Below are positions 3,528 through 62,392 of a stretch of 64,000 nucleotides of DNA, in pieces (the stretch's first letter is position 1; each line of letters begins with the position of its first letter). The translations under genes and the position numbers were made by a program. The stretch spans positions 20,260,642-20,324,641 of the forward strand of contig CP154954.1 of the NCBI GenBank assembly GCA_039621445.1, read 5' to 3'. Under the pieces are notes generated by a model. The model was not told where the DNA came from and made no database searches. It saw only the letters and a program-made list of their open reading frames with translations. The DNA is from Euglena gracilis. Taxonomy: Eukaryota.

Positions 3528-6500
3528 GTCTCAACATCGACTGCAGCGCCTGAGGGGTTTCTGTCAGATCCCCACCGTGAGGTTGGAGGGCATCCGTGGC
3601 TGCGCCAAACCGGAGGGGCCGAAGCGCTGAGGCGACCTGAGGGCAATCCGTTGCCTCAGCCGGATGAGTTTGGACTGCGAAAGGTATTGACTCCACTGAA
3701 CTGAGCTGCTTTTTTTTTTGTGAGCGTGCTGCATACCTCGGTTTTCTTTCGGTTCAATGGTGTATTGTTTAATTGTGCTGGAGTTCAGAGTGTGTCGCAT
3801 TGCCAGGAGTGGACCAAGTGCTTCGTGCCGGACGCCCCCGAAGTTGCTTTGGCGGACGTTTCGGAACATCTTCAAAAGCACGTGTATGATGTCCTGGTGG
3901 ACGTGCGCGATGCGCGGCTACCAGGCTTCTGCTTAAGGGATTGCAGTACCCCCCCCCCGGGGCTGGACTGCAGCTAGTCCAATTTTGGCTAGTGGATTTC
4001 TAGCAGACCCCCCCCCCGGGGGTCTGCTGCAGGGCTAGCTAGTGGAATTTTTTTCCAGTGACCGGCGTGAAGCGCCGGAAATACGGACCCGAACCCCCCC
4101 CCCTCGGGGGGAGGGGGGTTCTAGCTATTCCATTTTTTCCAGTGTTAGCCGATTGGCTAGCCAGTACCCCCCGGGGATCCTTAAGCACAAGCCTGGCCGC
4201 TACCCTCACCACATCTCCCTCCCTCCACAATACCAGGGATTGGCCAAAGTTTGTGGCAGGTGTGTTGTGTGTGTTGGTGTGTGTGTGTGTGTGTGTGTGT
4301 GTGTGTGTGTGTGCTCGGGCGCGCGCTGGCGTGCGTGCGTGCGTGCGTGCGTGCGTGCGTGCGTGCGTGCGTGCGTGCGTGCGTGGGTGCGTGGGTGTGT
4401 GTGTGTGTGTGTGTGTTGGTGTGTGTGTGTGTGTGTGTGTTGGTGTGTGTGTTGGTGTGTGTGTTGGTGTGTGGTGGTGTGGGTGTGTTTGTGTGTGTGT
4501 GTGTGTGTGCGTGCGTGTTGTGTGGTGGGGCAAACCTTTAAATCAAAGTCTGATGGAATCCATAGCAAGATAGCCCGACAATGTCTTTTGAAATGTTTTT
4601 TTTAAAAATATTTTTTCCTGTCAAAGGTTGAACATAAGGTAGCATGTCTTATGAAGACAAGCCGAACGTATCTAACTGCTGGTCAAACTTTGTGGGGGGT
4701 GGGCTAGTTTCCCGGTTTCGCTGTTTCCGACTCGGCTGCTGATTTCTGTTGCATGCTGCGGTGGTGTTCATTGGCCCGTGCCAACCCCCCTCCCTCCCCC
4801 TGCCATCGCCGGCCTCCCTCCCAGGCCCACATCGTGTGCTACACCCACGCGGAACGGCTCCGCCGGGAGGACATCGACCGAGTCGCGGCGTGGACGGAGC
4901 ACACCCACGGCCCCTCCGCCCAGCAGCCGTCTCTTCTTTCCACCACGGTGCCCGTTGGCCCCTCGTGGGCTGAGGGCTGGGCCGCCGACTGCTGAATGCG
5001 CTGCCGTCTTCTTCCTGAATCTGCGGCGTGTGCGGCGGATGGACCGGAAGCAGCCCTGGCGACTCCTTTCCCCACCCACATGGTGGACTCGGGCGAGGGG
5101 TTGGTGAGAGGTAGGGTGTTGGTTTGTGTAGAATGGGGACATTCTTAATTGCCGGCCAGGGTTTAGGGCAGGGTAAAGGGGAGGTACGGGGTCAGGGTTT
5201 GCGACAGCGTTGGGGTTGGGTGGGACACCAGGCCCCCACCTACTACCGGACCAAGTATGGACACGGATGCGCGCCCAACAGCAAGGAACGCCGTCCAGCC
5301 GGCAGGCCACGCGTCGCACGTGCCCACGCTCCGCACCGTTTCAACCGATACATCCGGGACCTAACTCCGGTGTCCAGCCCCGACAAAGGTCCGGCATCAC
5401 CGCCAACAACAGTCATCCGCCTGCGGGCATGGGTGTCAAACGGGGGTCATCCCGGCCCGCCGGAAACGAGGGACCGCCGTGCCCGGACCCCGAGGGGCCC
5501 CCAGCCCCCGGCCAGCGCCGCCCTCCAGCCCCTGCGGCGGGCGGTGGCCGCCGCGTGCCAGGCCGGCGGGGGCGCCGAGGCGCTGGTGGCGGGCCTCCCC
5601 AACGCCGGCAAGAGCAGCCTGCTGCACCCCTTGGCCCGCCGGTTCCGGCAGGCGGCGTGGAAGCGGAGGTCCGAGGACCACATGCCCCAGGTCCAATCCG
5701 GAACTCGTGGTGGGGGACCCCCTGGGTGGGGGGACCCCCGATCTCAAGAAAATCCCTGACATATGTGTATTGCATCAAAGATCACCTCCTGACCCCCCGT
5801 GGGAGGTGGTCCAGCCAGTCATAAGCCATTTTCCACCTCCCCCATCGAGGTATTTTTTAATTTCTTTCCAGTTGCATTTTGGGCGGCTGGATAGTTGCGG
5901 AGTTTTTGCCTTGGTGGGTTCCAACGTGGCAACATGCCAAATTTCAGCAAAAGTGCGTCGAAAATTGCCCAAGCACTTTAAATTTTGGGTCTGAAAATTC
6001 ATATCTTAAAATTTTGATATTTTTTGGACTTGTCTGTTGTTTTAATTTTTTTGGCACCCGGTAAGACCCCTGGGGTGGCCAGCCTTGATCCAGCCAGCCC
6101 AAAGCCTCTGATCTTCTTTCCCTGCCTGTTTCATTTCTTTTCTCCTCAGAGCTTGCACCCAAATCAAATTCGTCCTATTTGGTGCTGCCTTGCAAAAAGA
6201 ATGTAAATACAATATGGTTGACATGGCATGTTTCACTGAAGATGCCTTTACTCAGTATTTCAGACCGATTGACTGGTCGGTCAGAAATCCCGACCAGTTT
6301 TTCTTTGGCTCAATAACCCAGGCGAGGGATTTGGCCAAAATTGTGAAGTGGCTCCGCTCCTGCGCACCAAATTAAATGCGGACATTTCTCTTCGCCTCTT
6401 CGACCAATTTTCCCAACGTGGCTGGCAAGCACCTCCAATGGTGCATCCCGACAAATCCCGATGAATCCCGACAAATTGTGACAGATCGCGACAACACGTA

Positions 6501-9500
6501 TTTGGCCTCCTTGAGGTGGGGGTTCCATCAAATCCCGACAAAGCCCAACCAATCCCGACAACAGCGTCAAAATTTGTGACCAGGGATGAAGTTGCCAAGT
6601 CAGCATGATTTGGTTGGCTTTCTGTTTTGCACAGTTTTTTTTTTGTGAAACCACATAAAGAATTTGCATGAAAAAAGCTTCGTCACACATCAGATATGGC
6701 CAGGACCCAGCTCCAACGTGCAGAAGACAACAAACCCCGAAAAATCCCGACAAATCCCGCGGCCAGCACCCAATTATCAGACTTTCTGGAGGTGCGTGGT
6801 GGCTGCCTAACCCGGGTGGGAGGTGGTGGCCAGGTTGCCTCTGAGGGAAAAGTTGCTGACTGGTGGGTGGGCGAATGAAAGGAACCCCCCAAGGGTCGGC
6901 CAACAGTCAATGATCCCGAACGCATTAACTTCAGGTGGTTTTTGGCCAAACATCGTCCCTTCGGCCGGCGTTAAACCCTGGGATGGGTCAGGGGCCCCGC
7001 CGCCCCCGTCACAGGTCGCCTGCAAGCCGGGCACGACCACCTCCGTCCTGCCCTACCCCATGCCCAGTCCCTGTTTTGCTGTTCCCCCACTCCCAGAGAG
7101 CGAAATGGGGGGAAGGGAATTTGTGGTACCGCCCATCCGAAACCACGCCGTGTTCAGAATCAACAAGGGGGTACATGGGCTTTGGGAGCCCACTTGTTGT
7201 TGTTGTTGTTGTTCTTGTTGTTGTTGTTGCAATTGCACAAGTGGTCCAAAATTAATATATATTTTTGAGGCTTTTTTAGTGGTGATTTTTGAGACAAAAG
7301 GAGAATAAGAAGAACAGCGCGCACAAAGTGGAGGCGTTCGTACAGCATTCCTGAGCACATATGTACATGTGCATATGCAGCATATGCAGCATGTCTGAGA
7401 GGGTCAAAGAAAGTTTGTCAGGGTATTGCACCATGTGCCATAAATTCAACGTGTACACACATTCACGTAATCTGCAAACCGGTCGTCTGTGTGGTCAGTT
7501 TGTGAAATCCCACAAGTAATTCATGTGTTCAAACGGACCACTTGCACTATTGTGGGAACGTCTGTTCCCGTAATTACACAAGTGGAATATTCCCGCAGTT
7601 GCCCAAGTGGTTGGTTTGCACATTTTGCAACTGCTTTGTGTGTGCAGTTGCGCACGGAGACCGACTGGGACAATTTTTTTTAAAAAAAAGTCAAAGTGCA
7701 AGCTCGCCAAGTAGCAAACATGGTGCACGTTTGAAAGTTGTGTGTGTCGAAAGACCGGGGAAAAAAAGCCGGCGTTCCATGGCTTATGCAGTGCATCCAA
7801 CCAAGTCAGGCGGCCGATCTTGCACTTAAAACGGCATTGGTTTTGCGGAACTGTGCAAACGGACGGTTTGTGTTTTTTGAAAGTCCCAACAAATGGCGCC
7901 TAAACCTGTTAATTTGATCAGGATGTGGTCTGGTGCCCCAGGACGGTAGAGGGTGGTTCAAAGACTTTGACCTGTACGGTATTCATGGGGCAGGTGCCCC
8001 AAACAGCATACAGCGCATGGACACCCAGTATGTGTGCTTGGGGAACTCCCAACGGCTGCCTCATCAACTTGGGGTGTCGTGGGGCAGACGACATCGAGCC
8101 CTCCCCAAACACGTACACTAAGACGCCGGGGAACAACGTTCGCATGAGCAGTCGGGGCCGAAACGCTTGGGGGCCGGGGGCGGCCCCTCTCCGTCTGCCT
8201 GGGAGCAAATGCCGGCCCGCACCGCCGGGCCTGTCCCCCAGCGTGCCGGCCGCAGTGGCTCTGGGGCATCGACACCCCCGGGCTGGACCCCCCAGCGGCG
8301 GCGTTCCACGCGGACCCGGAGCTGGGCTTAGGGGCTTTCTTAAGCCGGAGGGTCCTACCCCCCGGGGGGGGGGGGTCCAGCCAGCCAGCACGTTTTATCC
8401 AGCCAACAACTCCCCCCCCCCGTGTTCGACGAAATGAAGTTGGGGCTGGGACAAAAAACCACCAAAATTTATTTCGAAAAAAATTGGGGAAGGGGCCAAA
8501 AATGGTTTTTTTTTGAGGGGATTTGGGGCTTTCACCTGATGTTTTTTTTTTTGAAAAGTCCCAACTCAGCTGAAATTGCACTTTTCTTTTGGCCGTTTTT
8601 CGGGTGCCAGGCAGGTCCAGCTGCCTGCCACCCCCCCCCCCCCCCCCCCCAGACCCCCCACCCCCCAGATGGATTCCAACCATCACCTTTTTTCTCTGGC
8701 TGCACCTTTTTCTAGCCGGCCCATGCCCCCCCCCCCCCCCTCGGGGGCCATAAGAAAGCCCCTGGCTTGGCTTCAAGCTGTTCCTCACGGGCCACCTGCG
8801 CCGGGGCAGGGCCCCGTGTGCGGTGGACGTTGCCGACTACGTGCTGTGGAAGTGCAATTGGGTGCGTCCCCTGTGGCCTGGCCCTCGGGGGGGGCTGGAA
8901 TGTCGCGGCAGGTTTTATCCGTTGGAGGCTGGCAGGCGCCGGAGGAGGAGGAAGAGATCTGTGTGGGTGCGCTCCGGTGCAAAAGCTATGACGTCCAATA
9001 TGTTCATGTGGGATGAGTAACCCACGTGTGCACGCAAACCAATCACCCCCCACCAATTGAAATTGCGCTTCAATTTTGGATTTTGGTATTCGTTTGGGTT
9101 TGCATCATTTTGGGGACTGTGTTTAATGGATGGCCACCTTTGGAAATTGCCATTTTGTTGTTTTCACAGCAAAATTGCTGGAAAGATCAACAATAAAAAC
9201 CTATGGGTGTTGTGCTTTGCCCCATTGGGATTTGTCTTTTTTTAATTTAATGGCTGTCAATCCATGCAAAGTTTGGAAAGGGTCACCGTGTCTTCCAGGG
9301 TTCACCCATACGACCAATACAACTACCAGCGATGAGAACCCCAAGCTCCAATGTCTTTTCCGGGCTTCTGCTTAAGGAAATGGGGGGGTTGCTATGGGCA
9401 GGCAGGGAGGGGGGGGGCAGGGGGTTGAAAGTGGGTTGGCAGTGCTATGGCACACCCCCCCGGTGCTGAAAGGCGCCAGTCATTTTTTTCACATTTTTCA

Positions 9501-62263: not shown

Positions 62264-62392
62264 CAGACTTTCATTTAGTGCGCCGCGGCGAAGTTTGCCG
62301 CGGCGCAAAAAAAAATTTGAGCCGCGGTTACAAAATTTCCGGTGCCGCGGCGCAGAAAATTTTCTTTCCGCAGTGCACTAAATGAAAGTCTG
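62264..62392. mobile_element. Small MITE nested in a family-2 element
   Basis: 18-bp perfect TIR cagactttcatttagtgc / gcactaaatgaaagtctg. 8-mers ggtcagac / ggtcggac. Internal gccgcgg repeats. Confidence 0.85.

Follow-up and report, generated by a model that had tools for sequence, protein, structure and literature searches.

Nonconventional introns of Euglena gracilis coinciding with MITE insertions: a probable correspondence between 3+5 splice offsets and an 8-bp target site duplication

Introduction

The closest described counterparts of the introns analysed here are the nonconventional introns of euglenids, whose consensus places CAG at positions +4 to +6 and CTG at −8 to −6 (Milanowski et al. 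2014, PMC3935182), and which, according to the literature, are excised as circles. Knock-ins in Euglena define their splicing code as N3-CDG/CH'G-N5-6|R, with a donor spacer of strictly 3 nt and an acceptor spacer optimal at 5 nt; N6 and CTG-CAG or CGG-CCG variants are also accepted (Nomura et al. 2025, PMC12501133). The offsets of 3 and 5 nt put forward for this locus by the original prediction are thus experimentally defined in Euglena and not merely its own inference (PMC12501133). Flanking direct repeats render 84.4% of E. agilis introns slidable (PMC12501133), and a strain-specific new intron in gapC of this species carries eight-nucleotide direct repeats (PMC4770533). An identical Y/R consensus is reported at both intron junctions (PMC6221363), as would be expected if each junction falls at the same place in two target copies. 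The origin of these introns is referred to as unclear or MITE-like (PMC12501133, PMC3935182), whereas here we read the repeats as 8-bp target site duplications (TSDs); likewise, the euglenid genome-wide analysis excluded slidable (repeat-flanked) introns, whereas here they are set beside matching non-genic elements. A MITE origin was published in 2013, and a single 8-nt repeat at a newly gained intron followed in 2016; we found no statement in print that the element plus 3 plus 5 nt equals the element plus one TSD.

The introners of Micromonas, Aureococcus, dinoflagellates and others are similarly MITE-like, bear terminal inverted repeats (TIRs) and TSDs, and form intron families, with the TSD helping exact removal (PMC11282704). 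However, introners depend on the spliceosome for their removal, supply or co-opt GT/AG sites and, in the examples given, have 3-5 bp TSDs (PMC11282704), whereas the ends described here are not GT-AG and the predicted cuts fall inside both TSD copies, at a fixed distance from the TIR stem.

Results

Thirteen candidate introns fit the nonconventional splicing code

We analysed one 64-kb stretch of E. gracilis DNA (the window), in which the original prediction had picked 13 introns lacking GT-AG ends; its coordinates and terminal motifs proved accurate for all 13. A sequence check revealed N3 followed by CAG, TAG or CTG at every 5' end, and CTG or CAG followed by N5 or N6 at every 3' end. The motif pair is CAG...CTG in 11 introns, TAG...CTG in one (8326-8769) and CTG...CAG in another (61658-60789), while the 3' motif precedes 5 nt in 11 cases and 6 nt in two (7062-8239 and 61658-60789). 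As predicted, removal from 3 nt before to 5 or 6 nt after these motifs restored the frame in 13/13, joining at least 39 open codons upstream to at least 33 downstream. The set further resembles euglenid nonconventional introns in that the downstream exon starts with a purine in 12/13, the junction is slidable in 12/13 (a shift of at least 1 nt leaves the mRNA unchanged), and the termini pair without interruption inward from CAG:CTG over 3-14 pairs. Intron status is thus predicted from reading frames and the published code for all 13, and additionally from paralog alignment for three.

Indeed, two tandem paralogous GTPase genes (1 and 2) served as mutual empty sites, and ungapped alignment was restored at three junctions. 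Removal of 3919..4200 gives DAR-LP, continuous in gene 2; the 8326..8769 junction PEL|GFK pairs, with no alignment gap, with AEL-YFM, likewise continuous in gene 2; and intron 20602..20852, which falls between the DTP and G codons of the G3 motif (DTP|GL), corresponds to an uninterrupted DTPGL in gene 1. At the level of predicted proteins, these empty sites confirm seamless restoration at the three junctions.

Five candidate introns carry target site duplications in register

In 5/13 introns, all on the plus strand, a TSD identity of 6-7/8 is kept in the N3/N5 register. Intron 3919..4200 consists of MITE 3922-4195 (TIR 13/14) plus 3 and 5 nt, with TSD copies GCGGCTAC/GCCGCTAC (7/8). Intron 8326..8769 comprises MITE 8329-8764 (TAG...CTG, TIR 13/14, 14 uninterrupted terminal pairs), flanked by GCTGGGCT/GCTTGGCT (7/8), and intron 25284..25741 comprises MITE 25287-25736 (TIR 12/14), flanked by GCGGAGGC/TCGGAGGC (7/8). 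The TSD matches at 6/8 in intron 10486..10790 (MITE 10489-10785) as well as in intron 20602..20852 (element 20605-20847, CCCCCGGC/CAGCCGGC). Two of these elements, 10489-10785 and 25287-25736, share a family, being alike over 156 nt at 84.6%. Element 3922-4195 and the non-genic element 56242-56630, in inverted orientation, have both ends and several internal blocks in common at 91-95% identity, which upholds the proposal that they form one family. These data support the view that MITE insertions account for some of the non-canonical introns in the window, with the CAG/CTG of the splicing code as their termini.

Non-genic and nested elements duplicate 8 bp of target

Outside the candidate introns, four non-genic MITEs (no strand is assigned to the elements in this section) are flanked by perfect 8/8 TSDs, namely 55787..55944 (TIR 14/14, GTCAGGCC), a relative of 59179-59354; 56242..56630 (CTGCCCAT), which has no spanning open frame; 57696..57965 (TIR 13/14, GTAAGAAC); and 59179..59354 (GTTTGCAG). 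A fifth 8/8 TSD, GGTGGGGG, surrounds a family-2 MITE at 61770..61874 (TIR ..AGGGTTCGATATA; left end AAG, not CAG) within a minus-strand intron. The MITE at 62264..62392 (TIR 14/14, CAGAC...) sits in family-2 element 62230-63262 between GGTCAGAC/GGTCGGAC (7/8), and has a related empty site, since other family-2 copies contain the target once at the aligned place. Free CAG...CTG copies with abutting 8-bp TSDs, as anticipated, therefore number five at 8/8 (one starting with AAG) and one at 7/8.

Across the five non-intron CAG-type elements, the flanks matched in 5, 5, 5, 5, 4, 5, 5 and 5 of 5 at the eight abutting columns, in 4 and 3 of 5 at two adjoining columns, and in 0-3 of 5 farther away, which supports a TSD length of 8 bp. 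Each copy has its own distinct 8-mer, as expected for DNA insertion. The remaining family-2 elements are 2737..2974 (TIR 12/14, TSD 5/8), 12688..13052 (TIR 13/14, 3/8, that is, no TSD), 14475..14577 (TIR 12/14, with the 7-nt repeat GGTTGCA in its flanks, shifted by 2 nt on the left side) and the element or composite 62230..63262 (TIR 12/14, TSD 2/8). When the latter was read as an intron belonging to the gene on the minus strand, no convincing exon emerged upstream. Finally, 53966..54358 holds one or more partial or rearranged members of the 3922/56242 family, in which two termini, at 54095 and 54358, resemble right ends.

Chance controls and the other eight introns

Scanning the window for CAG...CTG pairs with a TIR of at least 11/14 returned 214, eight of them with a TSD of at least 6/8, including three listed introns; flanks offset by 8, 16 and 24 nt yielded 3, 0 and 1 hits, respectively. 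Ten locally shuffled windows gave no CAG-type hit with a TSD of at least 7/8. Anchored on CAG/CTG, TSD identities of the 13 introns were 7, 7, 7, 6, 6, 5, 4, 3, 2, 2, 2, 2 and 1 of 8, and permutation of partners returned p = 0.0002 in the originally proposed register and p = 0.0007 after re-anchoring, values that are conditional on the original selection of introns.

In the other eight introns a TSD signal is absent (<6/8); their mean identity of 2.62 of 8 is close to the null of 2.78, and they therefore provide no evidence of MITE origin. Their TIRs match at just 8-10 of 14, and the family search detected none for any of them. On the plus strand, they are the putative nonconventional introns 4918..4999 (82 nt, TSD 4/8), 24530..25206 (5/8) and, in gene 2, 15716..16535 (1/8), whose junction adjoins a 4-residue gap in the paralog alignment, and 21794..23114 (2/8, 8 terminal pairs), together with 7062..8239 (2/8, only 3 terminal pairs). 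The last can be read as N3-CAG...CTG-N6 or as GT...AG, and may be a conventional GT-AG intron, with an in-frame alternative at 7067-8241 that has a C-rich tract and a product one residue longer. The minus-strand coiled-coil gene contributes 61718..62044 (TSD 3/8), inside which MITE 61770-61874 is nested; the other minus-strand candidates are 60789..61658 (CTG...CAG type, N6, 10 uninterrupted terminal pairs, TSD 2/8) and 60540..60657 (118 nt, TSD 2/8).

Discussion

We consider it probable that MITEs with 8-bp TSDs, inserted in exons, are spliced out seamlessly by the N3/N5 euglenid code. The window is euglenid-type nuclear DNA in which short DNA transposons of the cut-and-paste kind (MITEs) have terminal inverted repeats beginning with CAG and ending with CTG, and duplicate 8 bp of the target when they insert. 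The nonconventional splicing system of euglenids would read the CAG...CTG terminal stem, placing one cut 3 nt before CAG and the other 5 nt after CTG. For an exonic MITE, the 3 nt would close the left copy of the TSD and the 5 nt would open the right one, so the element plus exactly one TSD would leave the RNA, giving back the pre-insertion coding sequence. Because the termini are symmetric, either insertion orientation should be spliced.

The proposed equation of the 3+5 offsets with one 8-bp TSD is supported by the N5 introns that have a TSD (5/13), but does not apply to the N6 introns, which lose 9 nt instead of 8. A causal link between the 3- and 5-nt splice offsets and the 8-bp insertion stagger, and an origin of most nonconventional introns by MITE insertion, may be envisaged. 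The claim of visible age classes found no support here: 8/13 introns lie at the null TSD level, and two family-2 elements have good TIRs (12-13/14) but TSDs of just 2-3/8, a combination for which simple decay affecting TIR and TSD equally is no explanation. The notion of an active introner system was likewise not borne out; the copies are 5-15% divergent.

Splicing of the listed introns at nearby conventional GT/GC-AG sites is very improbable. For five of the 13, one or more in-frame GT...AG pairs lie no more than 18 nt from the two ends, 7062-8239 offers the good candidate described above, and a GC-AG reading of 25284-25741 yields the same mRNA; however, none of the strict GT-AG alternatives does so, that for 20602-20852 would lose 10 residues including DTPG against an ungapped paralog alignment, three introns offer neither a GT-AG nor a GC-AG alternative, and the experimentally defined code fits 13/13. 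Equally remote is the possibility that the 8-nt flank repeats are microhomology from double-strand-break repair at intron gain instead of transposase TSDs. This reading was proposed for the repeat of the E. agilis gapC intron (PMC4770533), but here the repeat length is fixed at 8 in 5/5 perfect cases abutting conserved TIRs, element families recur at unrelated sites with their own 8-mers, and the target of 62264-62392 has a related empty site. Rather unlikely, though deserving more weight, is that the splicing system and most introns are older and unrelated to MITEs, with CAG/CTG MITEs merely tolerated, a minority of introns derived from transposons, and 3+5=8 acting as a filter, not an origin. 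The 8/13 introns without TSD signal or detectable family point in this direction, as do the tolerance of the code for N6, CTG-CAG or CGG-CCG (PMC12501133) and the nonconventional introns also present in diplonemids (PMC12621601). Yet the spacers are plain N in the code and their sum still equals the TSD length; the equal consensus on both junction sides (PMC6221363), the direct repeats flanking 84% of introns (PMC12501133) and the 8-nt repeat at the strain-specific new intron (PMC4770533) likewise speak against it. Moreover, with the intronic 3-nt and 5-nt halves under no constraint, TSDs should fade.

For the MITE reading that we favour, the hAT-like label of the original prediction would follow from the length of the TSD, termini in YAG and a weak bias towards nTnnnnAn confined to non-genic copies; no transposase or autonomous element was found among the 10 window ORFs scanned, which returned only RVT_1 and zf-CCHC. 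The YARNG terminal motif of hAT has G at its fifth base, whereas many termini here have C. The chances that the mobilising transposase belongs to the hAT superfamily are, in our judgement, close to even. It is conceivable, if doubtful, that these are real MITEs obeying the 3+5=8 logic and mobilised by another superfamily (Merlin or P, for instance) that makes 8-bp TSDs; besides the fifth base and the absence of a hAT transposase among the scanned ORFs, the intron-copy TSDs do not follow nTnnnnAn (1 of 6 positions), and in the E. gracilis draft genome, hence in the same genus, two Merlin families are reported to have TSDs of 8 bp (PMC8101967). Merlin ends, compared here by description, nevertheless have a conserved terminal 5'-GG (PMC8101967), not seen in these elements, which start with CAG directly after the TSD. 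Furthermore, T2/A7 occur at 8 of 12 positions in the non-genic TSDs (binomial P = 0.003, post hoc), which fits the nTnnnnAn target preference of Hermes, a hAT element with 8-bp TSDs (PMC10368747).

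Nonconventional intron ends and their GT-AG alternatives

We examined the 13 introns without GT-AG borders listed in the original prediction, whose stated end motifs are present at their coordinates in every case. On the donor side, three nucleotides are followed by CAG in 11 of the 13 introns, by CTG in one and by TAG in one, the N3-CDG rule thus describing 12; the TAG belongs to 8326-8769 and would pair as U-G with the G of its partner. A complementary CH'G (CTG in 12 introns, CAG in one) with a 5-6 nt spacer is present in all 13, the acceptor spacer being N5 in 11 and N6 in two, and a purine begins the downstream exon in 12, the exception being 3919-4200, where T comes next. 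Uninterrupted terminal pairs extend inward from the CAG:CTG motif in all 13 introns (3-14 pairs), with a duplex energy of z <= -2.8 for five and weaker values for the remainder. Each of the 13 removals leaves one reading frame without a stop for 39 or more codons upstream and 33 or more downstream, and 12 junctions tolerate a shift of 1 nt or more with the mRNA unchanged. These offsets are a correct rediscovery of the code 5'-N3CDG-/-CH'GN5-6, with the cut before R, which Nomura et al. obtained by knock-in mutagenesis and which demands exactly 3 nt on the donor side and works best with 5 nt on the acceptor side, 6 being tolerated (PMC12501133). Such intron ends are those of euglenid nuclear genes, and we regard the DNA as Euglena-like for this reason.

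An in-frame strict GT...AG pair no more than 18 nt from both ends occurs in five of the 13 introns, and none of the 13 has a strict GT-AG reading that yields an identical mRNA. The sole GC-AG reading with this property concerns 25284-25741. For 20602-20852, the GT-AG alternative would remove ten residues including DTPG. The weak case is 7062-8239 (N6, only 3 terminal pairs, target-site duplication (TSD) of 2/8), for which a GT...AG reading at 7067-8241 with a C-rich tract is an alternative; this intron may be conventional or hybrid. In spliceosomal introners, GT/GC-AG sites come from the element or its TSD, an arrangement that the 13 introns do not fit, the GC-AG reading of 25284-25741 apart.

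Exon queries of sequence databases retrieved no spliced protein. A gene 2 exon (53 residues) matched, at 96% identity, a 200-aa sequence translated from unspliced genomic DNA of a public read assembly and gave three matches in a representative protein library; an exon of the minus-strand gene used as database query gave no match.

Paralogous GTPase genes as protein-level empty sites

Two tandem P-loop GTPase paralogs with YlqF/MTG1-like motifs lie on the plus strand at 3768-8990 (gene 1) and 15597-~25900 (gene 2). Their motifs run in the order DAR.P, P-loop, DTPG, an apparent circular permutation. When 10 single, too-short exons were compared with NCBIfam, the P-loop exon alone scored, against the YlqF model TIGR03596 and below cut-off (E = 0.0024), and one exon compared with PDB sequences matched generic P-loop GTPases, among them YlqF and MTG1 (E = 0.03-0.3).

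Spliced as proposed, the paralogs align through three junctions: ..VRDAR/LP.. in gene 1 versus unbroken ..VRDARIP.. in gene 2, ..DTP/GL.. in gene 2 versus unbroken ..DTPGL.. in gene 1, and ..PEL/GFK.. in gene 1 versus unbroken ..AEL-YFM.. in gene 2. The DTP/GL and PEL/GFK junctions fall within one ungapped stretch of the alignment, and a 4-residue gap begins 7 residues downstream of DAR/LP. Each paralog is thus a protein-level empty site for insertion in the other, and the alignment lends indirect support to removal from the mRNA at these three places. None of the three nonconventional intron positions checked is common to both genes, which argues that the insertions came later than the gene duplication.

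Non-genic elements carry 8-bp target-site duplications

We scanned the window for perfect 8-bp direct repeats around segments with terminal inverted repeats (TIRs) of at least 10/12. Four of the 11 matches are CAG...CTG elements (55787-55944, 56242-56630, 57696-57965 and 59179-59354), which confirms the predicted free copies with perfect 8-bp TSDs, 56242-56630 included. A second scan covered every CAG...CTG pair with TIRs of at least 11/14 (n = 214); TSDs of at least 6/8 flank eight of these, three being listed introns (3922-4195, 10489-10785 and 25287-25736), versus 3, 0 and 1 in controls offset by 8, 16 and 24 nt. A scan blind to the termini gave nine matches, four of them CAG-type and the other five attributable to microsatellites or to palindromic arms of a repeat unit; local shuffling of the window, repeated ten times, yielded 0-4 matches, never of CAG type. 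In a general search for inverted repeats, most of the output came from microsatellites and from one large palindrome (32.8-35.6 kb).

In five non-intron elements, the eight columns adjoining the termini are identical between flanks in 5, 5, 5, 5, 4, 5, 5 and 5 of 5, the two columns bordering them in 4/5 and 3/5, and those farther out in 0-3 of 5. The length of the TSD is set at 8 by 56242-56630. A G immediately precedes the left TSD in four of five non-genic elements, and a C immediately follows the right TSD in three of five (flanks at 55786/55953, 57695/57974, 59178/59363 and 62263/62401); this may reflect a target preference of the form G-N8-C or a duplication to be parsed as 9 bp.

Overall, the elements have the features of MITEs (103-450 nt, TIRs of 11-14/14, plus one composite of 1033 nt) and make up three or more families in the window. 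TSDs of at least 7/8 flank six elements outside coding sequence and three in introns. Each copy has its own 8-mer, a pattern that favors insertion into DNA over a spread of excised intron RNA.

A second family and a nested insertion

The termini of a further family (..AGGGTTCGATATA) match the window 10 times versus 0.41 expected, making five pairs (2737-2974, 12688-13052, 14475-14577, 61770-61874 and 62230-63262). The copy at 61770-61874, whose left end reads AAG, has the perfect TSD GGTGGGGG; another has a TSD of 5/8, one a 7-nt flank repeat displaced by 2 nt, and two lack a TSD (3/8 and 2/8) despite TIRs of 12-13/14. Recombination between copies or composite elements may explain such TSD loss beside well-kept TIRs. 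The element 62264-62392 (TSD 7/8) is inserted inside one copy of this family, and its target occurs once at the aligned place of other copies, which provide a related empty site.

When 62230-63262 was read as a further intron in the gene on the minus strand, no upstream exon was convincing. The 23 single matches of a 17-nt terminus of this family in metagenome contigs were put down to chance, as none had a partner terminus or extended similarity. Unpaired MITE-like termini with no assigned TSD were noted at 62739, 63992, 2183, 2733, 55738 and 59727 (CAGGCCTTTTTTAAGG and others).

A subset of introns belongs to the same element class

We then compared the intron flanks. Anchored on CAG/CTG, their identities in listed order are 7, 4, 2, 7, 6, 1, 6, 2, 5, 7, 3, 2 and 2 of 8, and permutation of partners gave p = 0.0007, or p = 0.0002 in the register first used (sum 59), both for the 13 introns as originally chosen. 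The signal is limited to five introns, the other eight averaging 2.62 versus a null of 2.78. The claim that the noncanonical introns are MITEs is accordingly supported for those five, and the eight show no TSD trace.

Both ends of the intron element 3922-4195, together with several internal blocks of 29-80 nt (91-95%), recur in the inverted 56242-56630, which upholds their proposed membership of one family. Moreover, the intron elements 10489-10785 and 25287-25736 have 156 nt in common (84.6%), and a CAGG-pyrimidine-rich-TTAAG TIR pattern recurs at 3922, 8329, 55787, 56242, 57696 and 59179. At 53966-54358, the 3922/56242 family is represented by copies that are rearranged or partial, with no clear left end and two right-end-like termini (54095 and 54358).

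The suggested age classes go further than the data: eight introns have no TSD trace, and the two elements with well-kept TIRs and no TSD argue against a simple decay series. Likewise, with copies differing by 5-15%, the wording "active introner" exceeds the evidence.

Superfamily assignment

The terminal motif of hAT elements is YARNG. CAGGG and TAGGG termini match it, and CAGGC and CAGAC deviate at the fifth base, where many termini have C. The 8-bp TSD and the C/TAG ends agree with the predicted hAT likeness, but the hAT label as such exceeds the evidence. Hermes, a hAT element, prefers nTnnnnAn targets (PMC10368747); T2/A7 are found at 8/12 positions in non-genic TSDs (P = 0.003, post hoc) and at 1/6 in intron copies, both on small n. 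Among the 10 longest or suspect ORFs there was no hAT transposase, the domains recognized being RVT_1 and zf-CCHC. E. gracilis is reported to have Merlin elements with TSDs of 8 bp, and this superfamily has a conserved terminal 5'-GG and TSDs of 8-9 bp (PMC8101967). Compared by this text description, TSD length fits Merlin, but the terminal GG was not seen, CAG following directly after the TSD.

Splice offsets match the length of the duplication

Splicing would remove the element together with the 3 nt of the left TSD and the 5 nt of the right TSD that directly adjoin it, after which one TSD copy would be left. This follows by arithmetic from the published 3/5 cut positions and the 8-bp TSDs of the elements, and both premises are supported, the cuts by published experiments and the TSDs by the window scans and the empty site. 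Seamless removal, as originally claimed, would hold for N5 introns and fails for N6 introns, which lose 9 nt. Splicing in either orientation is suggested by the symmetric termini; among the introns of the window, no single family occurred in both orientations.

For a subset of the window's introns, this core inference is well supported and agrees with independent published data. In E. agilis, 84.4% of introns are slidable owing to flanking direct repeats and were omitted from the analysis there (PMC12501133); slidable borders in most introns would follow from the TSD-removal reading. Similarly, the Y/R consensus is identical at both junctions (PMC6221363), as would result from both cuts falling between positions 5 and 6 of two target copies. 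The eight-nucleotide direct repeats of a recently gained, strain-specific E. agilis gapC intron are longer than those of the other introns examined there, and the authors favored double-strand-break repair (PMC4770533); the eight-nucleotide length would likewise follow.

We tentatively entertain the possibility that nonconventional splicing erases, at the RNA level, the insertions of a single class of DNA transposon to which it is matched, with a ruler of 3 nt and 5 nt, measured from the foot of the terminal stem, that equals the 8-bp stagger of the transposase. If so, an exonic insertion would be silent at once in either orientation, and the ~70% nonconventional Euglena introns, the slidable borders and the single consensus at both junctions would be accounted for. 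As a bolder speculation, the cutting enzyme might have co-evolved with or derived from the transposition system, or else a stem-measuring RNA endonuclease plus a ligase leaving circles.

How euglenid nonconventional introns arose has been a question since the 1990s. A MITE-like origin was proposed from inverted repeats alone (PMC3935182) and repeated since (PMC6221363, PMC11170887, PMC12501133, PMC12621601), and "TSD-like" repeats and CAG/CTG labeled as TIRs have been described (PMC11282704). By 2013, no transposable elements were stated to have been identified in euglenids (PMC3935182), and intron origin was still called unclear in 2025 (PMC12501133). Our search of main texts outside subscription journals found no fixed 8-bp TSD for these introns, no non-genic copies of the same families, no hAT link and no equation of 3+5 with the TSD length. 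The window adds element families, a fixed 8-bp TSD, families common to introns and non-genic sites, and a quantitative link between experimentally defined cut positions and TSD length, which makes the MITE hypothesis directly testable on published genomes and with the knock-in assay already in use. If the link is general, introns would be gained in this way without spliceosomal signals, and hundreds of thousands of such introns in one genome would be accounted for.

Other features of the window

The window has a G+C content of ~52% and long GT/GC microsatellites, and an Rfam search of it gave no match. (GT)n/(GCGT)n tracts lie at 4240-4530, 13650-14200 and 17000-18200, at least the first being inside a conventional GT...AG intron of gene 1 (about 4260-4824). 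Two tandem ~1.3 kb units with matching ORFs on both strands occupy 45320-47460, and one of these ORFs had no Pfam match. Retroelement copies were found at 30171-38000 and 49800-52300, with an RVT_1 reverse transcriptase (E = 3e-20) in the minus-strand ORF 31240-34188. Inverted repeats of 200-295 nt span 32835-35555, and their layout suggests a possible DIRS-like element. The product of a 1427-aa ORF (39295-43575) combines a CCHC zinc knuckle with weak Pfam matches, below the cut-off, to alpha-helical families, which we read as coiled-coil. Lastly, a ~320 bp repeat unit with long palindromic arms (..GAGTACTCCCGGGAAGTCTGACCAGG..) at 29687-30009, 38388-38713 and 49280-49612 adjoins the retroelement copies and imitates TSD+TIR matches in the scans.
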